The notes below the pieces were generated by a model, which did no database searches, had not been told where the DNA came from, and saw only the letters and a program-made list of their open reading frames with translations. 17,604 nucleotides of DNA, taken from assembly GCA_964450845.1 (NCBI GenBank), contig CAYVGZ010000027.1, forward strand, positions 1 through 17,604, read 5' to 3'. The stretch's first letter is position 1; each line of letters opens with the position of its first letter. Made by a program: the position numbers and the translations under genes. Source of the stretch: an uncultured Candidatus Bathyarchaeia archaeon (GTDB lineage Archaea > Thermoproteota > Bathyarchaeia > Bathyarchaeales > Bathycorpusculaceae). Positions 1,215 through 16,792 of the stretch are shown in pieces.

Positions 1215-2780
1215 TTAGATAGCTTCCCTCAAGAGTTCAACAATGTCTTTCACTGCAATCTTATTTTCTACATCCAATACCTTAACAGCATCTTCCAAGG
1301 TCGTCATACAGAACGGGCAAGCCACAGCTATGGTGTCAACATTGAGTTCTAATGCCTCTTTAACTCGGTCTACACTAGGCCTCTTTTCAGGAGTTGCCTC
1401 CTCTGTCCACACCCTTCCTGCTCCGCCACCACAGCAGAAACTGCTTTCTCTTGTTCGCTTCATTTCAACAAGTTCTAAGCCATTTATCGACTGCAAAATC
1501 TGTCTTGGTTCATCGTAAATTTCGTTGCGTTTACCTAAAAAGCATGGGTCGTGATAGGCAACTCTTTTCTTAACTGGTTTTGTGGGTTTTATTTTGCCCT
1601 GTTTGATGGCTTCAGCCAAGAATTGCGTGTAATGTTGAACGTTTAGTTTTTCGTCAGCGTATGGCTTATCATTTTTGAATGTATTGTAACAGTGCGGTGA
1701 CAACGTGACGATTTTTTCCGCATTGAATTTTTTGAACATTTCTATGTTGTGAAGGGCAAGTTCTTCGAACAATCCTTTTTCGCCCATTCTTAGCATATGG
1801 TCTCCACAACACCATTCTTCAGTGCCCAACGTAGCAAAGCTAACTCCTAAGCTGTTGAACATTAAAGCCATAGCTCTGGCAATTTCCATGTTTCTCGCAT
1901 CGTAAGTTGTCGAACAGCAAGTGAAGTACAGAACATCAGCCTTTGTAACTGTTGGAAACGTGTCAACGTTCAAGCCCTTAGCCCAATCCATTCTCTTACT
2001 CTGATGCGTTCCCATTGGGTTGTGGTATTTGTAGACGCTTTCCAGAACATCTTTAACAGTTCTCGGAATGTTTCCAGCTTCTACCAGAAGGCAGTGGTCA
2101 TCAACTATCGAGTTTGCGCAGCCAACGAGTTTGGGACAGAACAACGTGCATGAGTTACACTGGGTGCACAGCCAAATGTTGTCTGCCATGGGCTTTAATC
2201 GTTCGTCGCAGCCTGCGTCTCTTGAATCTGCGATGAATCGGTAATTAGCTGTTAATGCTGCAGGTCCGAGAAATCTTTCATCTATTGCGGCTGGACATGC
2301 TGAGTAGCAGATTGAGCATTTTGTACATAAAGTTAAGTCCCAGTATTTTTTGAGGTCAGTTGGCACTTGAGTAAATTCTTCGGTTTTCTTGAAGGCTTCT
2401 TCTGGCTTTATTAGTAACGTTTTGATTTTCTTAAATTTATCAAAGAAAGGTTCGATGTCAACCACTAAGTCTTTTATAACTGGCATGTTTGCTAGCGGTT
2501 CAATAGTTAAGGAGTCAACTCCGAGGTCAAGTACTTGCGTGTAACAGGCTAGCATGGGTTTTCCGTTAACATTTATTCCGCAGCTTCCGCAAATTCCAAA
2601 TCTGCACGAATGCCTAAAAGTGAGGGTCTCGTCAAGGTTGTCTTTAATGTATATGAGACCATCAAGCAACGTGTTTCCCATGCGAACTGGAACCTTGTAC
2701 GTTGAGAAATAGCGCCTTTTGCTTTCAGGGTCGAATCGAAGAATCTTAAATTCAACAATCTTCTCAACTTTAGAGTTCAT
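1215..2780 (-). CDS. tfrB: Succinate dehydrogenase/fumarate reductase Fe-S subunit fused to two CCG (HdrD-like) domains; thiol:fumarate reductase subunit B-like
   Basis: N-terminal SdhB/FrdB: CRFGICGSC...MLAC ([2Fe-2S]), CTKCSICYSACP, CTQCNSCTLFCP. C-terminal ~270 aa: YFTCC...WCCGD...SPHC and YHDPC...CCGGG...ACPFC (CCG domains). RBS AGGTGA lies 4 nt upstream. The symbol reflects architecture only; activity is unproven. Confidence 0.85.
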   Translation of the reverse strand: MNSKVEKIVEFKILRFDPESKRRYFSTYKVPVRMGNTLLDGLIYIKDNLDETLTFRHSCRFGICGSCGINVNGKPMLACYTQVLDLGVDSLTIEPLANMPVIKDLVVDIEPFFDKFKKIKTLLIKPEEAFKKTEEFTQVPTDLKKYWDLTLCTKCSICYSACPAAIDERFLGPAALTANYRFIADSRDAGCDERLKPMADNIWLCTQCNSCTLFCPKLVGCANSIVDDHCLLVEAGNIPRTVKDVLESVYKYHNPMGTHQSKRMDWAKGLNVDTFPTVTKADVLYFTCCSTTYDARNMEIARAMALMFNSLGVSFATLGTEEWCCGDHMLRMGEKGLFEELALHNIEMFKKFNAEKIVTLSPHCYNTFKNDKPYADEKLNVQHYTQFLAEAIKQGKIKPTKPVKKRVAYHDPCFLGKRNEIYDEPRQILQSINGLELVEMKRTRESSFCCGGGAGRVWTEEATPEKRPSVDRVKEALELNVDTIAVACPFCMTTLEDAVKVLDVENKIAVKDIVELLREAI

Positions 2781-2795
2781 ATACGTTCACCTTTC

Positions 2796-4496
2796 CTAAT
2801 ATTTTCTTTCAACTGGAGGCCACTTAGTTATCTTGGCTGGAACATACTCAAGACGAGGTCCTTCTTTTGTGCAGTAGGCGAGAGAGTGTTTTAACCAGTT
2901 TTCATCGTCCCGCTTCGGGTAATCACGCCTTGAATGGGCTCCTCTCGACTCTGTTCTGGCAAGCGCACCGACTATAGTTACTTCTGCAAGGTCTAACATG
3001 AAGTCAAGTTGCAGGGCTGAAGTAAATGCGGTGTTAAAGGTTTTGCCTTTGTCTTCAACCTTTATTTTCCTGAATCTTTGTTTGAGTTCCCTTATTTCTT
3101 TCAAGGCGCTCTCAAGCTGGTCGCCTCTCCTGAAAATCCAAACCTTCGTGTTCATAACCCGCCTCATCTCATCTCTGAGGCCAGGCACTCTTTCATCGCC
3201 TTCGCTGCCCAAGATTCCGTCAAAGATCCTCTTCTCTTCTGCTAAAAGTTTTTCATGTGAGATTTCATAAAAACTGCTAGACAAAGCGCATTTTGCAGCT
3301 TCCTCTCCAGCAACCGCTCCGAAAACTAGACAATCAATCGTCGAATTTGTGCCAAGTCTGTTTGCTCCATGAACGCTGATACACGAGCATTCGCCAGCAG
3401 CATAAAGTCCTGAAATCGGCGTTTCAGCTTTAACGTTAGCGCGGATTCCGCCCATTGCGTAGTGAGCTGCTGGTCTGATAGGTATCGGCTCCTTGACAGG
3501 GTCCACTCCCCCAATTTTTATTGCGACCTCGCGGATGAGGGGCAGCCTCTCGTTTATCTTCTCCTCGCCTAAATGCGTAATGTCTAAAGCTATGTAAGGT
3601 CCAAATGGTCCTGCTAACCCACGTCCTTCCAAGATTTCTGTTTCCTCTGCCCTAGCGACTACGTCCCTAGGGGCCAGCTCCATTCTTTGTGCTGCATAGT
3701 TTTTCATGAAACGCTCACCCTTGGCGTTGAGTAAGTATCCTCCTTCGCCTCGAGATCCTTCGGTTATCAGCACTCCAGAGGGAACCAGACCTGTGGGATG
3801 AAATTGGACAAACTCCATATCCATTAGTGGTGCTCCAACACGGTAAGCCATAGCCATTCCGTCGCCTGTGGATGCGTGGGAGAAGGTTGTAAATTCGTAC
3901 ATGCGTTGGTAGCCGCCAATCGCCATTATTATGGCTTTAGTTTGGAAAGCTTGCATTTCGCCAGTTTTTTGTTCTATTGCTGTCAAGCCTACGGCTCTGT
4001 TGTCTTTAACTATTATAGAGGTGACAAACCATTCGTCGTAAAACTTTATGTTACCATGGGACGTGGCTTTTCCATACAATGTGTGCATTTCATGAAAGCC
4101 CGTCATATCAGCTGCGAAGCATGCCCGTGGGAAGCTATGTCCGCCGAATGGGCGTTGGTCTATTTTTCCGTCGGGAGTGCGGCTCCATGGACATCCCCAA
4201 TGCTCCATTAAAATAATTTCCTTTGGTGCTTGTCTGACAAAAAAATCTACAACATCTTGGTCTGCTAGATAGTCTGCTCCTTTAACGGTGTCAAAGGCAT
4301 GCAAATCGTATGAATCTTTCTCCCTTAAAACAGCCGCTGTTCCGCCTTGTGCACACACAGAGTGCGAGCGGATGGGGTGAAGTTTAGAAATTACAGCTAT
4401 GTCTAGTTTATTGCTGACTTCAGCAGCAGCAACTGCAGCTCTAAGACCCGCTAAGCCAGCTCCTACAATAACTATGTCGTGTTTATATTCTTCCAT
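2796..4496 (-). CDS. sdhA: Succinate dehydrogenase/fumarate reductase flavoprotein subunit (SdhA/FrdA/TfrA)
   Basis: GAGLAG FAD-binding motif, [10 protein letters not shown] (covalent-FAD His), [43 protein letters not shown] upstream. Confidence 0.95.
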
Positions 4497-4540
4497 TCAA
4501 TTGTTCACCTTGTTGGAAGGAACCTAATTTTGTAATCTAA

Positions 4541-4556
4541 CCTTTATAGTTTTTCC
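4541..4556 (-). promoter_or_regulatory. Putative BRE+TATA promoter for the sdhA-tfrB operon
   Basis: The minus strand reads GGAAAAACTATAAAGG about 45-60 nt upstream of the ATG at 4496, a purine-rich element followed by TATAAA. Pattern match only. Confidence 0.45.
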
Positions 4557-4647
4557 ACGCTTTTTATGTGTAAGAATGTTTATTATTGATCAAATCTAAT
4601 TGTTTCGTGGTTAAGATGTCTGTTCCCGTCTGGAAAGGGGCAAAAAC

Positions 4648-6159
4648 ATGTTTAAGAAAATCTTGGTTGCCAATCGTGGAGAGATTGCAATTAGAGTGAT
4701 TAGGGCTTGTAAGGAACTAGAAGTGAAGACAGTTGCGGTTTACTCCCAGACCGATGCTGAATCTCTGCATGTTCAGTATGCAGACGAATGCCATTGCATA
4801 GGCCCAGCAGAACCCACCCAAAGCTACCTAAACATTGGCAAAATAATTGAATTGGCTAAGAAATCAGAGTGTGAGGCCATACATCCCGGTTATGGATTTC
4901 TCTCTCAGATACCAACCTTCGCAGAGGCATGTGAGGAAAATAGCTTAGAATTCATCGGACCTCCAAGTAGGGTTTTACAAAAGATGGGTTGCAAAGTGGA
5001 AGCCCGCAAAATTGCTGTCAAGGCTGGGGTTCCAATAGTCCCGGGAAGCATAGAACCTGCTAAAAGCATGGATGACGCTATGGAAGTGGGGGAAAAGGTC
5101 GGATATCCTGTTCTTGTTAAGGCTGTCTATGGTGGCGGGGGAAAAGGTATGCGAATAGTCACGAATGAGAATGAGATGCAACGAACATTGGAACTTGCAG
5201 CCTCAGAAGCTGAAAGCTCCTTCGGAAGTCGAGAAATTTACGTGGAAAAATTCCTTCCAAAAGTAAGACACATAGAATTTCAAGTTTTAGCTGACAAAAC
5301 TGGAAAAGTTATTCACCTTGGAGAACGGGAATGCTCAATTCAAAGAAGATACCAAAAGCTCATTGAAGAAACTCCATCCCCATTCATGACAGAAGAGCTG
5401 AGGAGAGAGATGGGAGAGGCTGCTGTAAAAATTGCAAATGCCGTAAACTACATCAACGCGGGAACAGTTGAGTTCTTAGTTGAACAAGATAAAAACTACC
5501 ATTTCTTGGAGATGAACACTAGGCTTCAGGTTGAGCACCTCATCACCGAGATGGTGACGGGTATAGACATTGTGAAAGCTCAGATCAAAATAGCGGCTGG
5601 CCAAAAACTTGAGCATGAGCAAAGCGATGTCGTCATGAGAGGACATGCAATAAACTGCAGGGTCAATGCTGAAGACCCATACAACAATTTCATGCCAAGC
5701 CCTGGAACAGTAACGAAGTTCCAACTGCCGGGAGGGCCTGGAGTAAGAGTTGACACTCACCTGTACGCTGGCTACTCCATTTCGGTTTTCTACGACCCAT
5801 TGATAGTGAAGCTTGCTGTTTGGGGGTCGAACCGTGGCGAGGCTATACAAAAAATGAGGAATGCCTTAAACGAGCTCGTAATAGAAAGTGTGAAAACTAC
5901 CATTCCTTTCCACAAGAAAATCATGGAAGACGAAGGCTATCTCAAGGGAGATATTTACATAAACTTTGTTGAGGAAAGAATTGGAGAGGTTCTACCAAAA
6001 TGTGCTTTAGAGGATGAGGAGGCCGCTGCAATAGTTGCAGTTTTGGCTGATCAAATAGAAAGAAGAGGTGTTCAAGCAGTTATTCCGAGAAGGGAGCCTA
6101 GGGCAGTTTCCCTTTGGAGACTTGCCGGTAGGACAAGGAGACTGGAGAGAACGCGTTGA
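4648..6159 (+). CDS. accC: Biotin carboxylase subunit (AccC/PycA/PccA-N type) with a C-terminal docking-tail extension
   Basis: MFKKILVANRGEIA, HPGYGFLS, KAVYGGGGKGMR, ERECSIQRRYQK, FLEMNTRLQVEH, RVNAEDP, GVRVD, YDPLIVKL. The ATP-grasp BC core is ~450 aa, followed by a ~50 aa tail. Confidence 0.96.
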   Translation: MFKKILVANRGEIAIRVIRACKELEVKTVAVYSQTDAESLHVQYADECHCIGPAEPTQSYLNIGKIIELAKKSECEAIHPGYGFLSQIPTFAEACEENSLEFIGPPSRVLQKMGCKVEARKIAVKAGVPIVPGSIEPAKSMDDAMEVGEKVGYPVLVKAVYGGGGKGMRIVTNENEMQRTLELAASEAESSFGSREIYVEKFLPKVRHIEFQVLADKTGKVIHLGERECSIQRRYQKLIEETPSPFMTEELRREMGEAAVKIANAVNYINAGTVEFLVEQDKNYHFLEMNTRLQVEHLITEMVTGIDIVKAQIKIAAGQKLEHEQSDVVMRGHAINCRVNAEDPYNNFMPSPGTVTKFQLPGGPGVRVDTHLYAGYSISVFYDPLIVKLAVWGSNRGEAIQKMRNALNELVIESVKTTIPFHKKIMEDEGYLKGDIYINFVEERIGEVLPKCALEDEEAAAIVAVLADQIERRGVQAVIPRREPRAVSLWRLAGRTRRLERTR

Positions 6160-6698
6160 CGATCCAAGAGGTTTTGGTGAACAGAAAACCGCACAAGGTC
6201 AAGGTTTTGGAGAGAAATGGAAACATCTTTACACTAGAGGTGAACGAGAAAACAGTCAACGTAAAATTCAAGAACATGGTTCAAGGTAAAACAGCAATAT
6301 TGGAGATTAACGATAAAACTTTTCAACCAAGTGTTGAGAGAATTCAAGGGAACGTTCTTCAAATTAAAATAGGCGGAAAACTTTTCGAAGTTCAATTTCA
6401 ACCTAAAATCCCAAAAGAATCGAATGCAAAGCATGAGCCTATAGTTACTATTGCGAAAAAACCAGCAATAGGTTTGGTAATAGAAAAAGACGCTGTGGCT
6501 GCTCCAATTGCGGGCAGAATCGTGCTGCTTAGGGCTAACGTTGGGCAAAAGGTTGAAAGAGGCGAGTGTGTCTGCATCTTGGAAGCCATGAAAATGCAGA
6601 ACGAAATAACCGCACCTAAGGCAGGAGTTGTCAAGGAATTTAGGGTTTCCAAAGGAGCTATTGTAAACAAAGGAGACATTTTAGCAGTTATTAGCTAG
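6156..6698 (+). CDS. Biotin carboxyl carrier protein 1 (N-terminal four-hairpin beta domain + biotinyl domain)
   Basis: The TTG start overlaps the BC stop (TTGA). Biotinylation motif EAMKMQNEI has its Lys codon at 6591-6593. APIAGRIV precedes it and the gene ends GDIL. Confidence 0.93.
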   Translation: MTIQEVLVNRKPHKVKVLERNGNIFTLEVNEKTVNVKFKNMVQGKTAILEINDKTFQPSVERIQGNVLQIKIGGKLFEVQFQPKIPKESNAKHEPIVTIAKKPAIGLVIEKDAVAAPIAGRIVLLRANVGQKVERGECVCILEAMKMQNEITAPKAGVVKEFRVSKGAIVNKGDILAVIS

Positions 6699-6729
6699 AA
6701 GCAACTGCTTTTACTGAAAAGTAGGTTAG

Positions 6730-7092
6730 GTGTGGAATGTGGCTAAATGGCTGAGGCGAATTCTGGGCACATGGGCGTTTCTCCTTTTAATTAATGGGTC
6801 TGCGTTAGGTTATTTGATTGTTAGTTTATTTTTTATTCCTAATGTTTGGGGAGTTTTAATCGGTTCGAGCGTAATGGCTCTTGGTTTTTGTTGGTATTAT
6901 GTACGGTATGTTAAGAAAAAGCAGCCGCGGTATCCCTTGGTGGCACCTGAGGGGAAGGCTGATTTTTATCTTCCAAGAACCAAAATTCCGAGACCTGTGT
7001 ATGCAGATTTTCGTGAGATTGAGGAGAAAAAGCGGAAGCTTGCTAAGGTTAAGAAGTTGGCTCGAAAGAAGGTCGTTCGGAAGAAAAAATAG
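6730..7092 (+). CDS. Hypothetical membrane protein (two predicted TM segments, Pro-rich linker, Lys/Arg-rich tail)
   Basis: GTG-start 120-aa ORF fills the gap between BCCP-1 and mce on the same strand. It has hydrophobic stretches TWAFLLLINGSALGYLIVSLFFIP and VWGVLIGSSVMALGFCWYY and the basic tail KKRKLAKVKKLARKKVVRKKK. No family recognised. Confidence 0.7.
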   Translation: MWNVAKWLRRILGTWAFLLLINGSALGYLIVSLFFIPNVWGVLIGSSVMALGFCWYYVRYVKKKQPRYPLVAPEGKADFYLPRTKIPRPVYADFREIEEKKRKLAKVKKLARKKVVRKKK

Positions 7093-7182
7093 CGCGCTAT
7101 CTTTCTCTGTGACTAGACCCTTCCTTATAAATGGATCGAACTTCTGGTAGTTTGTGAGTTAGAACTTCTTTGTTTTTGATTC

Positions 7183-7197
7183 AGAAAGTTTTTAATA
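7183..7197 (+). promoter_or_regulatory. Putative BRE+TATA promoter for mce-birA
   Basis: AGAAAGTTTTTAATA lies about 45-58 nt upstream of the TTG at 7241 and matches the typical archaeal BRE/TATA pattern. Confidence 0.5.
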
Positions 7198-7240
7198 ACG
7201 TGTTTAGTATGGCTTTATTCTGAATAGGAGTAGATTTAGA

Positions 7241-7645
7241 TTGTTTGTTGGTGTTGACCATGTTGGTGTTGCCGTGCGGAATTTGGATGAGGCTATAAGC
7301 GTTTACCGAGATGTTTTGGGTTTCAAGCTTGAGAGTGTTCATGTTTTAACGGAGCGAAAGGTTAGAGTGGCTTTTCTCTCCACTGGCGGAGAAACTAGCA
7401 TTGAGCTTTTGGAGCCTATTGGCAACGACAGCCCAGTTGCAAAGTTTCTTGAAAGTCGTGGAGAAGGCATTCAACATTTGGCTATGAAGGTTAAGAATAT
7501 TGAAGCGGTTTTGGCTGAACTTAAACGGAAAGCCGTGGTGCTTGTTGATGATAAGCCTAGGGCTGGCGCCGAAGGCACAAAAATTGCTTTTGTTCATCCA
7601 AAGAGCACGAAGGGCGTGCTTTTGGAACTTGTTGAAAAGCCGTAG
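7241..7645 (+). CDS. mce: Methylmalonyl-CoA epimerase (VOC family)
   Basis: VDHVGVAV, IELLEP, FLESRGEGIQHLA, GAEGTKIAFVHPKSTKGVLLELVE. TTG start with GGAG upstream. Confidence 0.95.
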   Translation: MFVGVDHVGVAVRNLDEAISVYRDVLGFKLESVHVLTERKVRVAFLSTGGETSIELLEPIGNDSPVAKFLESRGEGIQHLAMKVKNIEAVLAELKRKAVVLVDDKPRAGAEGTKIAFVHPKSTKGVLLELVEKP

Positions 7646-7647
7646 GT

Positions 7648-8445
7648 TTGTTGATGAATGTGAATGTGGACAGGCTTCAGGAAGGCTTACGCACTAAACG
7701 TTTTGGTAGGAACATTCTTTTTTTGCGTAAGGTTGGTTCTACGAATGATTTGGCTAAAGAGTTGGCTGGTTATGGGGCTGCTGAAGGAACGGTTGTGGTT
7801 GCGGAGACACAAACTGCTGGGCGTGGAAGGCTTGATAGAGAATGGGTTTCGCCTAAAGGCGGTTTGTGGTTTTCTGTTGTTCTTAAACCTGAACTTAAAC
7901 CTGCAGAGGCTGTTAGGCTTGTGTTTGTGGCTGGTTTAGCTGTGGCTGAGGTTTTGCATGAACTGTATAGGGTGAGGGTGGAGACGAAGTGGCCTAACGA
8001 TGTAGTGATGAAGGGGCGCAAAGTTTGCGGCATACTCACAGAAATGAACACGACGGGCGAAAAAGTCAATTATGTCACAGTAGGGGTTGGAGTTAACGCG
8101 AACCTTGATGTGGAAAAGGTTTTTCCTGAAGATTTGAGAACGGTTGCTACTTCGCTTGAAAATGAGCTTGGCAGAAAGGTTGGGTTAGAAGAATTGTTTA
8201 AGGCGTTGCTTGAGAGGTTGGAAAATATTTATGGGTTGTTTTTGGAGGAAGGTTTTGCTTCAGTTCTGGGGAAATGGAAAAAGTATGCGGGCTTTTTAGG
8301 TTGTCAAGTGGAAGTGACAAGTGGAACTGAGAAATGGGTTGGGCTCGCATCTGATGTTGGGAATGACGGGGCTTTGGTTATGAGGTTGGAAGATGGAACG
8401 GTGAAGCGTGTTTTCGTTGGGGATGCTGCTCTGCGGTCAAAATGA
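7648..8445 (+). CDS. birA: Biotin-protein ligase (group I, no N-terminal HTH)
   Basis: STND, QTAGRGRLDREWVSPKGGLWFS, KWPNDV, KVCGILTE, GVGVN. The start could be TTG 7648/7651 or ATG 7654. Confidence 0.95.
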   Translation: MLMNVNVDRLQEGLRTKRFGRNILFLRKVGSTNDLAKELAGYGAAEGTVVVAETQTAGRGRLDREWVSPKGGLWFSVVLKPELKPAEAVRLVFVAGLAVAEVLHELYRVRVETKWPNDVVMKGRKVCGILTEMNTTGEKVNYVTVGVGVNANLDVEKVFPEDLRTVATSLENELGRKVGLEELFKALLERLENIYGLFLEEGFASVLGKWKKYAGFLGCQVEVTSGTEKWVGLASDVGNDGALVMRLEDGTVKRVFVGDAALRSK

Positions 8446-8459
8446 GCAGTTATTTTTAT

Positions 8460-9230
8460 TTAGGGTCTTTTTCCAGTGATGTAGAAGCCGCGTTTTTCGA
8501 GTTGTTCAAGCAGTTCTTTTGGTTTTGGGTGCCATTGTCCCCATTTTCTGCAGATGTGTTCAGTCCAGCTATAGTTGTCATGCGTGAACGTTTCTTTGCG
8601 ATGTGCTCGTAATGGTATTTTTGCATTCATTTTTCTGTAATAGTCCTGTGCTAAATAGCCTTCATCCATTTGCTTCATGGCTTTTGACACTATTTTTTCG
8701 TCTAATTTTGGATATTTGTCTTCGAATAGTGTGAATTCCATGGGATAACGTGGTCGTGGCGGCGGATCTTCTGCTGGATAACCCATTACAAGCTGCACCA
8801 AGGGGAACACTCTTTTTGGTAGGCTATATTCTTCTGCGATTTTGTCAGCTCGGTACATTGCGCTTCCGAGGAAGCAACTTCCAAGTCCGAGGCTTCTGCC
8901 TGCGACTACCATGTTTTCTGCCATGTAAGCAGCGTCTTGAATTCCGAAGAACAGTAGCGTTAGGTCGTTTGTGGCTAGTTTCCATTTTCTTTTAGCCATG
9001 ATCAGTTCGAACTTGTGAGAATCTATGCAAATCGTGAATAAGAGCGGGGCTTTGAATGGGTTGCGTTTTTTGTTTCGTGACAATAATACGCTGTAATATT
9101 GCGAAGCGAACGGCGCTTGTTGACCTGCTCTGACGATTGTTTCTATTATTTCGTCTGATGGTGTTTCGTCTGTGTATTTTCGGATTGACTTATGCTCAAG
9201 CATGGTTTGAATAACAAGATTCTTCTTCAT
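8460..9230 (-). CDS. Nitroreductase/flavin reductase family protein (NfrA-like)
   Basis: HKSIRKY FMN-binding motif, DAAYMAENMVVAGRSLGLGSCFLG, LVMGYPAEDPPPRPRYP, plus a C-terminal extension. Confidence 0.88.
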   Translation of the reverse strand: MKKNLVIQTMLEHKSIRKYTDETPSDEIIETIVRAGQQAPFASQYYSVLLSRNKKRNPFKAPLLFTICIDSHKFELIMAKRKWKLATNDLTLLFFGIQDAAYMAENMVVAGRSLGLGSCFLGSAMYRADKIAEEYSLPKRVFPLVQLVMGYPAEDPPPRPRYPMEFTLFEDKYPKLDEKIVSKAMKQMDEGYLAQDYYRKMNAKIPLRAHRKETFTHDNYSWTEHICRKWGQWHPKPKELLEQLEKRGFYITGKRP

Positions 9231-9268
9231 GACATCATCGTCTTTACGCCTAAATCCAACATTCTGCA

Positions 9269-9283
9269 GATATATGAGTTTCC
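9269..9283 (-). promoter_or_regulatory. Putative BRE+TATA promoter for the nitroreductase gene
   Basis: The minus strand reads GGAAACTCATATATC about 40-53 nt upstream of ATG 9230. Confidence 0.4.
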
Positions 9284-9337
9284 GTATGTCCTAAATATCC
9301 GTTCAAGCAATAATACCCAATAACTTGAGGAGTTCGA

Positions 9338-10906
9338 ATGACCGCGATAAAGGAACCTTCGGTTGATGATAAGATTAAGCGTTTACGCGAATTAAACGAA
9401 CAAGCCAAACTGGGCGGCGGACAAAAACGAATTGAAGACCAACACGCTAAAGGCAAGTTAACAGCCAGAGAACGCATCGAGCTATTACTTGACCCAGGCA
9501 GTTTTAACGAGCTTGACCAGTTCGTTGTGCATCAATGCACCGAATTTGGTATTGGTGAAAAGAAATTCCTCGGCGACGGCGTCGTAACAGGCTACGGCAC
9601 AATAGACGGCAGACTCGTCTACGTCTTCAGTCAAGACTTCACAGTCTTCGGCGGTTCACTCGGCGAAATGTTCGCAAAAAAAGTCTGCAAACTCATGGAT
9701 TTAGCCTTAAAAACAGGCGCACCCGTCATAGGCTTAAACGATTCAGGCGGAGCACGCATACAAGAAGGCGTAGCAAGCCTCGCGGGCTACGGTGACATAT
9801 TCTTCCGAAACGTCATAACTTCAGGCGTCGTACCGCAAATAAGCGCAATTATGGGTCCATGTGCAGGCGGAGCCGTCTATTCTCCAGCCCTAACAGACTT
9901 TATAATTATGGTGGATAAGACAAGCCACATGTTCATCACAGGCCCAGACGTAGTTAAAGCAGCATTAGGGCAAGAAGTCACTTTCGAAGAGCTCGGCGGG
10001 GCAATGGTTCACAGTCAAACAAGCGGCGTAGCGCATTTCATTGAAAAAGACGAACAACACTGCATACAGCTAATCAAGAAACTCTTAGGCTATTTGCCAA
10101 GCAATTATTTGGAAGACCCGCCAACAATAGAGCCAACAGACGACCCAAACAGAACAGACGAAACCTTGGCTCACATACTTCCAGACGACCCAGACAAGCC
10201 CTACGACGTTAAAGAAATCATAACACGCTTAGTAGACAACGGCGAATTCTTCGAAATCCAGCCCCTCTGGGCACAAAACATCGTGATCGGCTTCGCACGT
10301 TTAAATGGCAAAACCATAGGCATAGTAGCCAACCAACCCGCACACTACGCTGGCGCATTAGACATACATAGCAGCATGAAAGCTGGCCGTTTCATACGCT
10401 TCTGCGACTGCTTCAACATCCCAATAATCACATTCGTAGATGTGCCGGGCTTTCTGCCAGGTCTAGAACAGGAACACGGCGGCATAATCAAACACGGGTC
10501 AAAACTATTGTACGCTTACTGTGAAGCAACAGTGCCAAAAATCACTGTGATACTCCGCAAAGACTATGGCGGTGCTTACGATGTAATGGGTAGCAAACAC
10601 AGCGGAGCAGACATAAACTACGCATGGCCAACAGCCGAAATAGCCGTAATGGGACCGCACGGAGCAATAAACATAATCTTCCGCAAAGAAATCGCCGAAG
10701 CCACCGATCCGGAACAAAAACGCGTGGAACTTGTAAGTGAATATCGCCAAAAATTCGCAAGCCCTTACATAGCAGCACAGAAAGGCTACATAGACGAAGT
10801 AATAGAACCTGCCCAAACCCGACCCAAACTAATCAGCGCTCTGGAAAGCTTAACCACAAAACGCGAACCAAGACCAATGCGAAAACATGGAAACGTACCA
10901 TTATAA
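9338..10906 (+). CDS. pccB: Acyl-CoA carboxylase carboxyltransferase subunit (PccB / MmdA / transcarboxylase 12S type)
   Basis: [99 protein letters not shown] upstream. Confidence 0.96.
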
Positions 10907-10943
10907 GTCAATTGAAAAAACAAAAACCACTGGTGTTCTGGTG

Positions 10944-11741
10944 ATGGACAGAAAAAGGTTGACCCGTGACATAATAATCCAAACGCTTGTGAATGCCTTA
11001 AAACCGCTCGATTATGTCCACACCTTTTATGAGGGAGGCGCCGCTGCCTTCAACCGAATTGATGAATGGTCCGACATCGACCTCTATCTAGTCGTAGACG
11101 ACGAAAAAGTCAATGAGGCATTCCTAGCAGCCGAAAAAGCATTAAAATCGTTATCATCTATCAAGCAAAAGTTTGATGTGCAGCAAACTGGCTGGCCAGG
11201 TGTCTTTCAGGCTTTTTACAGGTTGGAAGACGCAAGTGAGTATCTTATCATTGACCTTTGTGTTTTGAACTTCAGCGGTTCAGAAACGTTTTTGGAGCCA
11301 GAGATACATGGTAACGTCGTGTTCTACTTCAACAAATCTGGTAAGATTAAGCCTCCGCAATTGGATAGGGAAGCACTAGTCAAGAAAGTGCACGCGAGAT
11401 TTGATAGATTGCAGGCAAGGTTTGCCATGTTCAACAACTTCGTGCAAAAGAAGATCAACAGAGGTCATCTTCTTGAAGCCATAGACCTGTATCACGGTCT
11501 TACCCTTGCCACGCTAGTTGAAGCTTTGCGGATTAAACACAATCCTATACATTACAATTTCAAGATGGAATATCTGCATTACGAGCTTCCATCCGACGTA
11601 ATCAAGAGACTTGAGCATCTATACTTTGTCAAAGACGCGAAGGATCTGCAAGAAAAATACTACGAGGCAACCGAGTGGTTCCATAGGATAATTCAGGAGA
11701 TCGATCAAAAGGAAATAGAAAGGCTAATAGGAATACGATAG
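10944..11741 (+). CDS. Pol-beta superfamily nucleotidyltransferase with a C-terminal helical domain (LinB/AadK-like architecture)
   Basis: EGGAAAFNRIDEWSDIDLYLVV is the G[G/S]...DxD NTase motif, with a third acidic residue in IIDL. Helical C-terminus contains KKINRGHLLEA. The start was moved from the track's 10887 (overlaps pccB) to ATG 10944; GTG 10941 is also possible. Confidence 0.75.
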   Translation: MDRKRLTRDIIIQTLVNALKPLDYVHTFYEGGAAAFNRIDEWSDIDLYLVVDDEKVNEAFLAAEKALKSLSSIKQKFDVQQTGWPGVFQAFYRLEDASEYLIIDLCVLNFSGSETFLEPEIHGNVVFYFNKSGKIKPPQLDREALVKKVHARFDRLQARFAMFNNFVQKKINRGHLLEAIDLYHGLTLATLVEALRIKHNPIHYNFKMEYLHYELPSDVIKRLEHLYFVKDAKDLQEKYYEATEWFHRIIQEIDQKEIERLIGIR

Positions 11742-11753
11742 GGCTTGTGCGTG

Positions 11754-12104
11754 TTAGAATAAGATTTCTTTATTCATCTTTACCTTGTCATTCTCGATTG
11801 GTACGCCTTCTTTTTCTACGAGCTTCCTTCTAGACTCAGCGGCATTTCTTTCTCCTCCGAATCCACCGTCACACCTGACAACGCGATGGCATGGAACAAT
11901 TGGGTGAAGCGGATTTTTGTGTAACGCATTAGCAACAGCCCGATAAGCGTGTGGTTTGCCGATTTTTTCTGCTATTCTCTTGTATGTGCTGACTTTTCCA
12001 TGTGGAATCTTGAATGTGGCGACCAAAACTTTCTTTTCAAATTCTGTCTTGTTAGATAAGAAACGTCTAACATCTTCTTCCGTTTTAACTGCATCTTTAT
12101 CCAT
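11754..12104 (-). CDS. ogt: O6-methylguanine-DNA methyltransferase family protein (single DNA-binding/catalytic domain)
   Basis: IPHGKVSTY, RAVANAL, NPLHPIVPCHRVV with the active-site Cys. The likely start is ATG 12104 (MDKDAV) rather than 12125. Confidence 0.88.
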   Translation of the reverse strand: MDKDAVKTEEDVRRFLSNKTEFEKKVLVATFKIPHGKVSTYKRIAEKIGKPHAYRAVANALHKNPLHPIVPCHRVVRCDGGFGGERNAAESRRKLVEKEGVPIENDKVKMNKEILF

Positions 12105-12174
12105 TAAGCATCCCCATTTACACATTTAGGGAATTTGAATCTCTTATAAGTCTTTAAATTTCTCTTTAATCATT

Positions 12175-12888
12175 CTAATATTCAACGATTTTGGGCAGTT
12201 TCTTGGCTTCTGCAATAGTAGACTCGAGTTCTTTTGGCAATGGAGCTATTCCTTCAAAGCCTGTTCTCTCAACAAACTTGATAAGCATAACTCTAAGCTC
12301 TTCTGGATTCCACTTAGCCAGTTTCTCGATTGAATCAACACCTGCATCATAGTAAAGCCTTGCCCGAATGCCCTTTACACCTTGGATTCGAGCCAAATCT
12401 GACAGTTTAACAAGCTCCAGAATGGCTTCTGCTGGCACTCCAGTCTTCGCTGATAGCTCCTTTCTTTTGTCTCTTGTTCGTCCTGCCTCCAACATTTGCT
12501 TCACGTTTTTAATGCCTATACTCGCAAGTTTTTTAACATGTTCTTGACTGACTCCTCGGAACTCCTTCAGCGCAAAAGGTGCTTTCTCTATTCTTTTACC
12601 TCTCAATTCTCTTGCACATTCGTGCATCTCCTTGTTAGAGGTATACTCGTAGTAATAGCGAATCCCCCACAAGCATAGCTTAGCAGACTCGTTTCGCTCT
12701 TCTTCAAACCATGACACAAATGCTTCAAGATCTTCTGGACATGCCTTGTCTAATCCTTTGCGACCTCTTTTCTCTTGCAAATATTGCTCAAACTCAGTTA
12801 CGTATACAATAACCCGTCTGACCACACTTGGAGACCGCACACCTCGTTTTAAGAATTTCCGAAAGCCTTCTTCATCCACTTTTCTCAC
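12175..12888 (-). CDS. DUF4332-type helix-hairpin-helix protein with an N-terminal integrase SAM-like (core-binding) domain
   Basis: The C-terminal half (LKEFRGV...LASIGI...LSDLARIQGVKGIRARLYYDAGVDSIEKLA...LPKIVEY) fits DUF4332 from memory. The N-terminal ~85 aa (FRKFL...SPSVVRRV...FEQYL...EDLEAFV...LWGIRYYYEY) follows the integrase N-terminal SAM-like pattern. No recombinase catalytic domain. Confidence 0.7.
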   Translation of the reverse strand: MRKVDEEGFRKFLKRGVRSPSVVRRVIVYVTEFEQYLQEKRGRKGLDKACPEDLEAFVSWFEEERNESAKLCLWGIRYYYEYTSNKEMHECARELRGKRIEKAPFALKEFRGVSQEHVKKLASIGIKNVKQMLEAGRTRDKRKELSAKTGVPAEAILELVKLSDLARIQGVKGIRARLYYDAGVDSIEKLAKWNPEELRVMLIKFVERTGFEGIAPLPKELESTIAEAKKLPKIVEY

Positions 12889-13011
12889 ACGCCCTTACTA
12901 CGTTTGCGTTATCTTGTCGAATAAAGCTATTTCTTGACACCTAAATGAATTAATATGGCTTCACCTACCCTTTCTAATCTCAAATTCAATCTATATATAA
13001 GGGGGGTCTAG

Positions 13012-14559
13012 ACGCCTAAGAGCAAACCAGTCAAAATCACCGACACAACACTTCGCGACGCACACCAATCTTTAATGGCTACGAGAATGCGCACAGACGC
13101 TATGCTTCCCATAGCTGAAAAAATCGACCAAGTAGGCTTCTTCTCGCTAGAAATGTGGGGAGGAGCAACATTCGACGTTGCAATCCGCTTCTTAGCCGAA
13201 GACCCGTGGGAACGAATCCGCACTTTGAAACGTCACATAAAGCGAACACCCTTTCAAATGTTACTGCGTGGACAAAATGTTGTTGGCTACCACAACTATC
13301 CAGACGACATCGTCATAAAATTCGTAGAAAAAGCCGCCGAAAACGGCATCGACATATTCCGCGTTTTCGACGCTTTAAACGACATAAGAAACATGGAAGT
13401 AGCTATAAAAACAGTAAAAAAAACTGGCAAACACGCCCAAGGAACCATCTGCTACACAATCAGCCCAGTCCACACAATAAAATACTACGTGGAAACCGCC
13501 CAAAAACTAGCCCAACTTGACTGCGACTCCATCTGCATCAAAGACATGGCTGGAATGCTCGCACCACAACCGGCATACGAACTCATAGCTGCACTAAAAA
13601 AGAAAGTTGGGCTTCCCGTACATTTACACTCTCACAGCACAAGCGGCATGGTCATGATGACTTACCTCCGCGCATGCGAAGCAGGCGTAGACATAATCGA
13701 CACAGCCTTCTCGCCATTAGCTTGGGGCACTTCCCAGCCTCCAGTCGAATCTGTCGTAGCTGCCTTGAAAGGAACACCCTACGACCCAGGACTTGACATA
13801 GAACTCTTGAGCGAGATTGCAGATTACTTCCAAGAGCTACGAGAGAAATACTACGACCCACTAAAGCTTATCGACTCAAAAGCTGAAAGAGTTGACGCTT
13901 CCATTATCGTTCATCAAATTCCCGGCGGAATGTTCTCTAACCTTCTTGAACAGCTGAAAGAGCAGAAAGCGCTCGGCAGACTGAAGGAAGTTCTTGAAGA
14001 AGTTCCGAAAGTTAGAAAAGAGCTTGGTTATCCACCACTCGTAACGCCCACAAGCCAGCTCGTCGGCATACAAGCCGTGTGTAATGTTCTTTCAGGCAAA
14101 CGTTACAGCATTGTGCCAAAGGAGATAAAAGACTACGTGAAAGGCTTCTACGGAAAACCACCAGCTCCAATTAATCCGAAAGTGAAAAAGAAAATCATCG
14201 GCGACGAAGAACCCATAACATGCCGCCCAGCTGACCTTTTAGAGCCATCTCTCGACAAGATGCCAAGTGAAGCAAAATCCTACATTGAAAGTGAAGAGGA
14301 CAAACTAACCTATGCATTGTTTCCACAAACAGCCCTAGAATTCTTCAAGAGGAGAAAAGCCAAACGAGAAGAAGCTAAACCTGGAATCCCCCCTGAGAGA
14401 ATTGGCGAACTTGAAGAGGTCGCCGCAGTCTCGGTTGCAGTTGCCACCTACTTGACAAGCTCAAGCGGTGTAAAAGCGCTAATACTAGCAAAAACTAAAG
14501 CAGCCACATCATCTTGGGTATTAGCTGGTAGACAAAGCCTAGCTGATCATGGTGCATAA
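13012..14559 (+). CDS. Pyruvate/oxaloacetate carboxyltransferase (transcarboxylase 5S / PycB / OadA type) with a C-terminal docking tail and no fused biotinyl domain
   Basis: DTTLRDAHQSLMATRM, EMWGGATFD, QMLLRGQN, FRVFDALND, CIKDMAG, HLHSHST, QIPGGM, PPLVTP. The frame stays open upstream of the track's ATG (13075) to an in-frame TAG at 13009-13011. The catalytic DTTLRD motif lies in that upstream part, so the proposed start is ACG 13012. The product call is high confidence and the start is uncertain. Confidence 0.9.
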   Translation, partial: TPKSKPVKITDTTLRDAHQSLMATRMRTDAMLPIAEKIDQVGFFSLEMWGGATFDVAIRFLAEDPWERIRTLKRHIKRTPFQMLLRGQNVVGYHNYPDDIVIKFVEKAAENGIDIFRVFDALNDIRNMEVAIKTVKKTGKHAQGTICYTISPVHTIKYYVETAQKLAQLDCDSICIKDMAGMLAPQPAYELIAALKKKVGLPVHLHSHSTSGMVMMTYLRACEAGVDIIDTAFSPLAWGTSQPPVESVVAALKGTPYDPGLDIELLSEIADYFQELREKYYDPLKLIDSKAERVDASIIVHQIPGGMFSNLLEQLKEQKALGRLKEVLEEVPKVRKELGYPPLVTPTSQLVGIQAVCNVLSGKRYSIVPKEIKDYVKGFYGKPPAPINPKVKKKIIGDEEPITCRPADLLEPSLDKMPSEAKSYIESEEDKLTYALFPQTALEFFKRRKAKREEAKPGIPPERIGELEEVAAVSVAVATYLTSSSGVKALILAKTKAATSSWVLAGRQSLADHGA

Positions 14560-14561
14560 AA

Positions 14562-15116
14562 GTGCCTGTTTACGAAATTTTCATAGACAGCAAACCCCGA
14601 AAAATCGAACTGAAAAAGACTGGAGAAAACTTTTTCACAGTTAAAATAGACAGCAAGTCCCTCAGCATAGAATTACCATCCGACAAGCTCAACCTAGAAA
14701 AGCTTTCCTCCATAAAAATAGATGGAAAAACATACCACATAGAATTGCCCAGAATCGATTGGGAAAAACTCTTTCCCGTCAAGGTTGAAGAAATCACATT
14801 CAAAGCTGAAGTAAAAACTTCCACAAAGAAACCAACATTAACAGCTTTTGAACCAGTCCCCTTAACACCCACAAAGAAAACTATGGCGACAAAACAAGTT
14901 GTCGAAGGCACCATAACAGCGCCAATGACAGGAAAAATCCTCTCAGTTAAAGTCAAGAAAGGAGATCAAGTGGAACTTGACCAAGTTGTCTGCATCCTTG
15001 AAGCTATGAAAATGGAAAACGAAATTACGGCGCCCAAGGCTGGAACCATTCGAGAAGTGTATGTTTCAGAGGGTTCATCGGTGAGTGAAGGCGAACCCCT
15101 TTTCATAGTTGACTAG
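14562..15116 (+). CDS. Biotin carboxyl carrier protein 2 (N-terminal four-hairpin beta domain + biotinyl domain)
   Basis: GTG start 2 nt after the CT stop. APMTGKIL precedes the biotinylation motif EAMKMENEI (Lys codon 15009-15011). The gene ends GEPLF. Confidence 0.94.
14574..14813 (+). repeat. Four degenerate ~21-24 codon intragenic repeats in BCCP-2
   Basis: Protein level: [13 protein letters not shown] / [13 protein letters not shown] / [13 protein letters not shown] / [16 protein letters not shown] level: ATAGACAGCAA at 14583 and 14646, CATAGAATT at 14666 and 14738. Confidence 0.7.
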
Positions 15117-16792
15117 AAGATGGAAGGCGGTTTATACTCGCCAAAAACTTCGCGTAAAGTGTCACATATTTCGCCGAGGGTTACATACTCCTTTACTGAT
15201 TGAAGTATGAAGGGCATGAGGTTCACGTTTTCTTGTTCTGCTGCTCTACGCAGCTTGTTTAGGGCTTCGTCCACTTTAGCTTGGTTTCTTAGCGTTTTTA
15301 CCAGTTTTAGGCGTTCAACAAGCTTCTTCTCGATTTCAGGGTCTATTTGCAAAATCTTTATGGGAGCTTTTTCTTCAGTCGTGAACTCGTTCACGCCTAC
15401 GACTATTCGCTTTTTTGCTTCAACTTCCTTTTGGAAACGGTAGGCACTTTCCATAATCTCATGTTGCATGAAACCTTTTTCAATTGCGGCAACCGCTCCA
15501 CCCATAGCGTCAATTTGTTCGATATATTTTGCAGTTCTCTCTTCAATCTGATTTGTTAAATACTCCACGTAATATGAACCTGCAAGAGGATCAACAGTGT
15601 CGACTACTCCGCTTTCGTACGCTATAATCTGCTGAGTTCTGAGAGCAACTGTCACTGCTTGCTCGCTAGGTAAAGCATACGCCTCATCAAACGAGTTTGT
15701 ATGTAAAGACTGTGTTCCGCCTAAAACTGCTGCCAAAGCTTGAAGCGCCGTTCGAATAATGTTGTTGTAGGGTTGCTGAGCAGTGAGCAAGACGCCTGAG
15801 GTTTGAGTGTGGAAGCGCAACATCCATGAAGCAGGATTTTTGGCTTCGAAACGTTCACGCATGATCCTAGCCCATAATCTCCTTGCAGCTCTGAATTTGG
15901 CGATTTCTTCGAAGAAGTTGTTGTGAGCAGCGAAGAAAAAGGATAATCTGCCTGCAAACTTGTCTAAGTCTAAGCTCCTTTCAATTGCTGCCTGCACGTA
16001 GGCGATTGCGTTTGCAAATGTGAAGGCGATTTCTTGGACAGCAGTGGCGCCTGCCTCGCGGATGTGGTAGCCGCTTATACTGATGGTGTTCCACTGGGGC
16101 ATGTGCTTGGAGCAATGTTCGAAAATGTCCGTAACCAATCGCATTGAAGGCTTAGGTGGAAAAATGTACATGCCTCTAGCTACGTACTCCTTTAAAATGT
16201 CGTTTTGAACTGTTCCGCCAAGCTGAGACTGCTCAATGCCTTTTTTTTGTCCAACCGCAACATACATTGCAAGCAAAACATTTGTAGGAGCATTAATTGT
16301 CATAGAAGTTGTAATCTTGTCCAATGGTATTCCTTCAAAGACGATTTCCATATCTCGCAAAGTGCTTGCGCTTACCCCAGCCTTGCCGACCTCACCACGC
16401 GCCATTGGATGGTCACAGTCATATCCCACTTGAGTTGGAAAATCGAACGCTACGCTTAGCCCCTTTTGACCCTGCTCCAGCAGATATTTGAAGCGTTGGT
16501 TTGTCTGCTCAGCAGTGCCAAAGCCCGCATATTGCCTCATAGTCCATAATCTAGCCCGATACATTGTTGGATAAACGCCACGAATGAGCGGATATTCACC
16601 TGGAAATCCTAAATCCCGCACATAATCAAAATCTGCAATATCCAGCGGAGTATAGATTCGGTTGACCGGGACATTGGAGCTTGTGGAGAATTCACCTTTT
16701 TCAGGAAGCTTTTCGAGACTTTTCGACGCGATTTCTTTTTCCCAGCTCTCTTTGCTCTGCTTAATTTCTTTCAGTTTTTGCTTGTCAAACAA
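15113..16792 (-). CDS. mcmA: Methylmalonyl-CoA mutase large (substrate-binding) subunit, split type
   Basis: [70 protein letters not shown]. No DxHxxG B12-binding domain. TTG start with GGTG upstream. Confidence 0.95.

Follow-up and report, generated by a model that had tools for sequence, protein, structure and literature searches.

A common tail on two biotin-dependent enzymes of a bathyarchaeial locus points to a probable split BT-like domain

Two enzyme-carrier pairs and their shared C-terminal tail

The window analyzed here, a 17,604-nucleotide (nt) stretch of contig CAYVGZ010000027.1 from an uncultured Candidatus Bathyarchaeia archaeon (assembly GCA_964450845.1; 1.64 Mb in 120 contigs, 93% complete), codes for two biotin-dependent enzymes which end in a similar C-terminal tail, and each of which is directly followed by its own biotin carboxyl carrier protein (BCCP). 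The first is a biotin carboxylase (BC; 4648-6159, 503 amino acids) with the Pfam domains Biotin_carb_N, CPSase_L_D2 and Biotin_carb_C. Its carrier, BCCP1 (6156-6698; Pfam Biotin_lipoyl), joins an N-terminal BT-like (BC-CT interaction) barrel (~6156-6410) via a linker to a biotinyl domain (~6492-6695). The second is a 5S-type pyruvate/oxaloacetate carboxyltransferase (CT; 13012-14559; Pfam HMGL-like and PYC_OADA) followed by BCCP2 (14562-15116), which comprises an eight-stranded N-terminal barrel (residues 3-85, ~14568-14816), a disordered linker and a biotinyl domain (~14910-15113). Between the two pairs lies the gene for PccB, a 12S-type acyl-CoA carboxyltransferase (9338-10906; Pfam Carboxyl_trans, E=4e-205; NCBIfam mmdA subfamily, E=5e-260). 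All five genes are on the forward strand, and the genome as a whole has one BC (its sole PF02785 match), one 5S-type transferase, one PccB and two carriers of the BCCP1/BCCP2 kind. Each enzyme gene is indeed coupled to its carrier gene, as claimed in an original prediction made from the letters of the window alone: the TGA stop of BC overlaps the TTG start of BCCP1 (TTGA, 6156-6159), and the GTG start of BCCP2 comes 2 nt after the TAA stop of CT (14557-14559). In the reading developed below, the tails would be one half of a BT-like domain that has been split between enzyme and carrier.

A Pfam scan places both tails at the C-terminal ends of BC and CT, beyond the last recognized domain. The BC tail (6001-6156, forward strand) consists of an Ala/Val-rich helix followed by G-V-Q-A-V-I-P, S-L-W-R-L-A-G-R and a basic end, while that of CT (14401-14556, forward strand) has the helix E-E-V-A-A-V-S-V-A-V-A-T-Y-L followed by G-V-K-A-L-I and S-S-W-V-L-A-G-R-Q. 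Translation of 6016-6135 and 14413-14535 reproduces the two tails as originally quoted along with their identical internal spacing, the distance from G to W being 16 residues in both; the helix preceding the G-V pair differs by one residue. This helix is built of Ala, Val and Ser residues in both tails, and is predicted as helical, at low confidence, in the model of CT.

A pairwise BLASTP comparison of the two tails (E=1e-4) aligns only 22 residues, and hence an independent test was made with separate hidden Markov models (HMMs) of the tails of CT homologues and of BCs, each run against all 16,607 six-frame open reading frames (ORFs) of the window genome. After its own gene, the CT-only HMM recovers a single other match, the BC tail, at E=5.8e-5, and the BC-only HMM likewise recovers the CT tail next at E=2.1e-3; in both searches the next best match stands at 1.3. 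Searches with the tail region gathered 117 CT homologues and 16 BC homologues bearing the tail. In their joint alignment the Trp is invariant, and conservation of 90% or more extends to two Glu, to four Ala and, in the S-x-W-x-L-A-x-R motif, to the S, L, A and R. The most conserved part of the tail is thus not the helix itself but the S-x-W-x-L-A-G-R segment beyond it, within a conserved stretch of 25-30 residues that carries the invariant Trp. That two Ala-rich C-termini merely resemble each other by chance or composition is very improbable: the motif is short and the BLASTP alignment brief, but the idea is contradicted by the reciprocal, genome-unique HMM matches, the conservation in more than 100 homologues and the invariant BCCP gene context (see below). 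The likeness of the tails is homology rather than composition, and the original claim of one shared tail on two different folds stands.

The NCBIfam models of fused PycB/OadA proteins match CT as far as position 451, and their match to BCCP2 sets in at position 460; the tail of ~50 residues is therefore an insertion exactly at the split between transferase and carrier. Similarly, the best match of CT to a 5S model stops at position 451 of 500 and leaves the tail uncovered. A fused CT-tail-BCCP protein was not found among homologues searched up to a length of 865 amino acids, the longest of the 117 tail-bearing CT homologues measuring 546 amino acids. These homologues are named pyruvate carboxylase subunit B in databases, in which the naming of such genes is inconsistent. 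The original prediction knew of no description of such a tail on a 5S-type CT, and none was found in Pfam, NCBIfam or searchable papers. It had additionally pointed to a resemblance to AccE, which proves faint: the BC tail reaches 16.2 bits (E=0.016) against the Pfam family ACC_epsilon (PF13822), under its curated cut-off of 25 bits, and the CT tail does not match this family.

A BT-like barrel on the carriers

BCCP1 and BCCP2 are 30% identical over their full length, including the N-terminal domain. The AlphaFold2 model of BCCP2, built with 71 homologues, shows eight strands in residues 3-85 (3-8, 11-19, 24-29, 32-37, 50-53, 56-61, 71-75 and 78-85) with pLDDT values of 71-90, ahead of the disordered linker and the biotinyl domain. 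In a Foldseek search of the PDB with this model, the best matches are alpha chains of propionyl-CoA carboxylase (PCC), over ~186 columns at E=5.7e-12, whereas carrier-only chains are about five orders of magnitude worse (E ~5e-7). The BCCP2 N-terminal domain retrieves nothing from the PDB when used as a single sequence, but the family profile does: it aligns in one stretch with residues 567-726 of human PCC alpha (E=2e-22), as also with the alpha subunit of methylcrotonyl-CoA carboxylase (MCC) and with residues 466-614 of the beta subunit of two-subunit pyruvate carboxylase (PC), the BT-like sheet of the latter included. On the side of BCCP1, the Pfam family PCC_BT (PF18140) is matched at E=3.7e-4, under its curated cut-off, across model positions 35-111 of 126. 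As this match begins only at position 35, the carrier has a BT barrel without the first ~34 positions, i.e., those of the helix and the hook.

This arrangement invites comparison with the BT domain of PCC and MCC alpha, which likewise places an eight-stranded barrel directly before the linker and the biotinyl domain, has a central helix of small residues that leads into a connecting segment, and works with a PccB-type hexamer as partner, a role which is here proposed for PccB. The PCC domain also contains a hook, placed between helix and barrel, that plays an important part in the contacts of the holoenzyme (PMC5059739). Unlike that domain (PF18140), the version proposed here is split, with helix and hook at the C-terminus of an enzyme and the barrel at the N-terminus of a free BCCP, and one of its two helix donors is a TIM-barrel transferase of the 5S type rather than a BC. 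The resemblance to the helix and hook of the BT domain that had been suggested for the tails is in this sense supported.

Tail and barrel as proposed halves of one domain

Helices that complete a BT-like barrel in trans have precedents. In two-subunit PC, an all-small-residue C-terminal helix of the BC subunit (PycA) is buried in a barrel formed by the CT-BCCP linkers, and its deletion or the substitution A465R abolishes the holoenzyme; a long extension is likewise present at the C-terminus of archaeal PycA (PMC5059739). The structure from Methylobacillus flagellatus (PDB 5KS8; PMC5059739) resembles the present case in that the helix comes in trans from the C-terminus of BC. It differs in that its barrel is composed of two four-stranded sheets from two CT-BCCP chains, whereas here one carrier gives all eight strands, and in that its CT is fused to BCCP and is devoid of a helix, whereas here CT is separate from BCCP2 and has a helix of its own. 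In the sodium-pumping oxaloacetate decarboxylase (OAD), the cytoplasmic tail of the gamma subunit (OadG) binds the association domain of OadA that lies between CT and BCCP (PMC7274780, citing Balsera 2011, Dahinden 2005). Finally, in the actinobacterial acyl-CoA carboxylase / mycobacterial LCC complex, AccE (epsilon) has its N-terminal helix inside a barrel of AccA3 hairpins and attaches to the AccD core by a hairpin at its C-terminus (PMC13012033). A helix in the carrier-side barrel combined with a second part on the 12S-type CT core is the logic which we propose for the tail. AccE is nevertheless a free subunit, four AccA3 chains contribute the hairpins of its barrel, docking is by a helical hairpin, and its sequence likeness to the tails is marginal, being confined to the above-noted match of the BC tail.

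On this background, the direct partner of each tail is probably the barrel at the start of the BCCP whose gene comes next. This is indicated by the tail helix, which has the character of a buried one, by the lack of such a helix in the barrel of the neighboring carrier, and by the relatives of the tail in OadG (see below). The original prediction had instead cast the tail as a plug for PccB. Half of this stands, as PccB is the common denominator of the tail-bearing genomes, being present in 21 of the 23 (see below), and either module can occur alone with it. The other half does not fare as well: the tail is probably no free plug, given the adjacency of the BCCP genes, the match to PCC alpha that sets in just after helix and hook, the OadG, AccE and PycA precedents and a weakly positive complex prediction. 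In its strict form, in which the tail by itself binds PccB independently of the barrel, this idea could draw on the company of PccB, the faint ACC_epsilon likeness and the part of AccE that docks straight on the CT core (PMC13012033). However, a hydrophobic helix of exclusively small residues is the signature of the buried central helix of BT-type domains (PMC5059739), the carrier has a barrel lacking exactly that helix, and the same motif occurs on OadG-like subunits, the known partner of which is a carrier-side association domain (PMC7274780). We accordingly regard a free-standing plug as quite improbable.

The complex prediction just mentioned combined residues 1-90 of BCCP2 with the CT tail, each supplied as an alignment, along with three controls. 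It returned an ipSAE of 0.55 against 0.00 for the best control, with at least 89% of contacts agreeing between runs and a partner pLDDT of at least 55, a result graded as weak support. The mark applied passes 58 of 80 solved complexes along with 2 of 110 mismatched pairs; the range of ipSAE up to 0.60 accounts for only 7 of those 80 complexes and for both of the passing mismatches. Since BT domains have been solved, the pass may reflect likeness to them. The prediction hence adds a little to a reading that adjacency, fold and precedent had made likely beforehand, and an insertion of the helix into the barrel, as modeled, is weakly indicated.

Distribution and gene content among Bathyarchaeia

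A run of the tail profile over 301 Bathyarchaeia genomes gives strong matches in 23, all of them within four families of the order to which the window belongs; in 6 of the 23, the two tails share a contig at a distance of 5-8 kb. A 5S-type gene was found in 33 of the sampled genomes, and its version bears the tail in the 22 from this order and lacks it in the 11 from other families. Among the relatives examined, a BCCP gene directly follows all 21 of 21 tail-bearing CT genes and 5 of 5 tail-bearing BC genes, and the carriers of these loci share the same N-terminal domain of ~86 residues. A phylum-wide scan of 350 sampled genomes yielded no BC gene with the tail outside Bathyarchaeia; this negative comes from a 47-position profile that is insensitive, and other archaeal BC tails may still be related.

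Within the 23 genomes the two modules are not obligately associated. Eleven genomes carry both, one has a tailed BC with BCCP and PccB and no 5S gene, and 9 of the 22 with a CT tail have no BC (89-100% complete, three of them at 100%). PccB, the 5S transferase and BCCP2 are retained in all nine. Seven of the nine have an assembled locus that is syntenic with the window minus BC-BCCP1; these loci variably retain the epimerase-like gene, BirA, PccB, the 5S transferase and BCCP2, mostly the mutase, and in one genome the fumarate reductase genes. A search for OadB was negative in all 23 tail-bearing genomes, and an oxaloacetate or methylmalonyl-CoA decarboxylase pump was on this ground rejected for the lineage. 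A 12S-type CT together with a 5S-type CT and a carrier, with neither BC nor pump, is the composition of a transcarboxylase, and it is found in the nine BC-less relatives.

The methylmalonyl-CoA:pyruvate transcarboxylase of Propionibacterium freudenreichii (12S, 5S, 1.3S; EC 2.1.3.1) shares with these loci its three components and its pathway neighbors, and the relatives without BC match it in this respect also; compared to it, the window genome additionally has the BC-BCCP1 pair. At its N-terminus, the bacterial 1.3S carrier bears a short peptide and no BT barrel. The mutase, epimerase-like and fumarate reductase-like genes around the two modules are those of the methylmalonyl-CoA route between succinate and propionate. 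Transcarboxylase-type readings of such gene sets have been published for Asgard archaea (PMC7015854). Literature searches returned nothing specific on a transcarboxylase of Bathyarchaeia or on an archaeal carboxylase of known structure in which the BT domain is split.

These patterns bear on the possibility that tails and barrels pair crosswise, for instance with the BC tail in the barrel of BCCP2, such that BC and the 5S transferase would constitute a pyruvate carboxylase and PccB would be a separate enzyme. The C-terminal helix on BC is a hallmark of the alpha subunit of two-subunit PC and recalls the long extension of archaeal PycA (PMC5059739), the window genome has just one BC and one 5S gene, and the database naming of the CT homologues points in the same direction. 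However, nine genomes hold the tailed 5S transferase and BCCP2 with no BC, and BC and BCCP1 have been lost as a pair from the syntenic locus; the function for which the 5S module is conserved therefore cannot be that of a PC. Further, the helix of the 5S transferase itself would compete with that of BC, and the genes sit amid those of the methylmalonyl-CoA pathway. A PC assembly is in our estimate improbable.

A related motif in OadG-like, MmdD and MmdE proteins

A search of 1.84 billion representative proteins with the joint tail profile yields 20 matches, mostly gene fragments; as full-length CT and BC proteins stand behind the cluster heads of this set, it provides no census of the tail. 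Apart from CT and BC fragments, the matches include three small proteins (P0157, P0158 and P0159; E=1.8e-4 to 8e-4). P0158 is a bona fide member of OAD_gamma (Pfam E=1.2e-11), and two of the three weakly match the MmdD and MmdE models. Like the tail, the OadG/MmdD/MmdE proteins recovered by the profile combine a helix with G-x-K-x-x-I-P and W-x-L-A-G-R. They are small subunits, either anchored in the membrane or free, of pumps that have OadB, whereas here the motif is fused to soluble catalytic subunits, and the N-terminal membrane helix by which OAD_gamma and MmdD bind the beta pump subunit has no counterpart in the tails, these being C-terminal extensions of soluble enzymes.

A decarboxylase operon from another family of Bathyarchaeia (positions 3911-10041 of locus L046, from G023:C10) codes for a BCCP, an OadG-like protein, OadB, an MmdA-type CT, a 150-amino-acid soluble protein, a 5S CT and a further BCCP. 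Its OadG-like subunit (P0240) ends in a helix, G-L-K-F-N-I-P and S-N-I-W-S-L-A-G-R, its soluble protein has an N-terminal helix of the same kind with W-G-L-A-S-R, and its 5S transferase is without a tail. The operon may encode a pump fed by two carboxyltransferases. The occurrence of the motif on these other subunits argues that it is, as far as its sequence goes, a mobile adaptor which different lineages have put on different subunits.

OadG works with a 5S-type partner only, and the enzyme of which MmdD and MmdE are subunits has a transferase of the 12S type. This distinction is of interest with respect to an alternative in which the tail is a tether and nothing else: the helix would fill the barrel of the carrier and keep each BCCP on its own enzyme, and PccB would be bound by other surfaces or transiently. 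Adjacency, barrel fold and precedents all accommodate it, as does the location of the tail exactly at the CT/BCCP split point. Moreover, the helix-barrel unit in OAD and two-subunit PC is not docked on a 12S-type hexamer (PMC7274780, PMC5059739). Yet the most conserved element is the Trp segment, which is common to families with barrels only 30% identical and suggests a further common partner. The NCBIfam models of OadG end at the helix, whereas those of MmdD and MmdE, whose partner is of the 12S type, run on through the Trp motif (both being weak matches), and the part following the helix contacts the CT core in PCC and AccE. A pure tether is thus a serious though unlikely alternative.

Proposed organization and function

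We favor, at a probability of roughly 0.55, a split BT-like domain that mounts each module on PccB. Its detached front half would be the tail, with the small-residue central helix and, at the position of the hook, the segment G-V-K-A-L-I-P...S-x-W-x-L-A-G-R; its back half would be the barrel of eight strands with which the BCCP of the next gene begins. Assembly of helix in barrel would pair BC with BCCP1 and the 5S transferase with BCCP2. By analogy with PCC, MCC and mycobacterial AccE, the assembled BT-like domain, probably via its Trp segment, would then anchor the module on the PccB hexamer, and PccB would be the common partner of two alternative modules. The two holoenzymes may be mutually exclusive, as the original prediction had it, or else mixed or independent. 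BC-BCCP1-PccB could act as an ATP-dependent acyl-CoA (propionyl- or acetyl-CoA) carboxylase, and 5S-BCCP2-PccB as an ATP-free methylmalonyl-CoA:pyruvate transcarboxylase serving the nearby mutase, epimerase-like and fumarate reductase-like genes. Both activities are predicted from sequence and gene context.

Several observations weigh against this proposal. The isolated CT tail matches no family in Pfam and NCBIfam, even at E-values up to 10, and the tail profile finds only chance matches, with no solved structure, among PDB sequences (E>=0.25); the term hook is for these reasons assigned by position and not by sequence. In the model of CT alone, the tail is an unpacked helix of low confidence (pLDDT 33-61), a result that says nothing about its partners. 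The complex prediction covers a single pairing of tail and barrel, graded as weak support and reported with no interface. The VIA structural aligner gives full-length PCC alpha matches a Z of 14.7 at a root mean square deviation of ~18 Å and carrier-only matches a Z of 15.5; since it did not separate the contribution of the barrel, the barrel assignment rests on the Foldseek E-values and the sequence profile. Lastly, 2 of the 23 tail-bearing genomes have no detected PccB; in both, the CT gene is at a contig edge, where PccB sits elsewhere. The absence of a gene from metagenome-assembled genomes is in general never certain.

BT helices provided in trans are known already from PycA, AccE and OadG. 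What this locus adds is a helix of the BT type borne by a 5S-type transferase, a carrier that is free and has all of the barrel to itself, and the use of one adaptor for BC and 5S subunits that are encoded close to each other and to the sole PccB. Biotin enzymes share a small set of parts, and the way in which these are joined decides function. In this light the locus suggests a connector in two pieces that can be transferred between enzymes: the barrel would belong to the carrier, and any catalytic subunit could bring helix and hook. An archaeon could by this means equip a single acyl-CoA carboxyltransferase with a carboxyl donor that depends on ATP or with one that does not. If true, it would explain how an archaeal transcarboxylase is assembled without the bacterial 1.3S N-terminal peptide, and one adaptor principle would link the PycA helix, AccE and the OadG/MmdD/MmdE tails. 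The tail together with a barrel-bearing BCCP could also serve as a simple sequence marker separating transcarboxylase-type 5S genes from those of PC or oxaloacetate decarboxylase in Bathyarchaeia, and the connector would bear on the production versus consumption of propionate by these abundant sediment archaea.

More speculatively, and in our view rather doubtful as a whole, the PccB hexamer might be a universal chassis with two interchangeable cassettes attached by the split-BT adaptor, namely BC-BCCP1, driven by ATP, and 5S-BCCP2, fed by oxaloacetate. Cells with both could then form switchable or mixed particles that carboxylate propionyl-CoA, and perhaps pyruvate too, at the expense of ATP or oxaloacetate, and the ATP-using cassette would have been gained and lost as a unit.

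Other features of the locus

The start of the 5S transferase gene is unusual. Its frame opens with an ACG at 13012, straight after an in-frame TAG, and no ATG, GTG or TTG occurs in this frame (13009-13077) ahead of the metal-binding and catalytic motif D-T-T-L-R-D-A-H-Q-S. The ATG at 13075 is internal and excluded as the start because this motif lies upstream of it. The same stop-ACG sequence recurs in two relatives (G184, locus L019, and G298, locus L030), where other homologues have ATG or TTG, which suggests a conserved non-canonical ACG start.

In the order of the window, the first gene is a fragment of an aldehyde:ferredoxin oxidoreductase. It is followed on the reverse strand by a fumarate reductase-like flavoprotein together with an Fe-S subunit that bears two CCG domains (TfrAB-like; 1215-4496). 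This pair has no membrane anchor genes nearby, its CCG fusion corresponds to a thiol:fumarate reductase-like architecture, and it is syntenic in the relative G184. Downstream of BCCP1, on the forward strand, come a glyoxalase-family protein (7241-7645; Pfam Glyoxalase_4), a probable methylmalonyl-CoA epimerase that is syntenic in relatives, and a BirA-like biotin protein ligase (7648-8445; Pfam BPL_LplA_LipB and BPL_C); a nitroreductase-family gene on the reverse strand separates the latter from PccB.

Three small or uncharacterized genes occupy the interval between PccB and the 5S transferase. A 284-amino-acid ORF (10887-11741, forward strand) with a weak nucleotidyltransferase match (Adenyl_transf, E=2.4e-4) overlaps the end of pccB and is kept at the same position in G184 and G298. 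On the reverse strand, a protein with the DNA-binding domain of 6-O-methylguanine-DNA methyltransferase (11754-12125), also found in this neighborhood in G184 and G296, is followed by a DUF4332 protein (12175-12888). Beyond BCCP2 lies the large subunit of methylmalonyl-CoA mutase (15113-16792, reverse strand; Pfam MM_CoA_mutase, E=2e-229). The two convergent genes overlap by 4 nt at their ends (15113-15116), and their tail-to-tail arrangement is also seen in G184, G208, G072 and G296.

Finally, one relative with a completeness rating of 100% has its BC gene divided over two frames, of 316 and 161 amino acids (G008:C4:24192-24676). The split is a frameshift or a sequencing error, and if genuine would fit a BC that is dispensable in this lineage.

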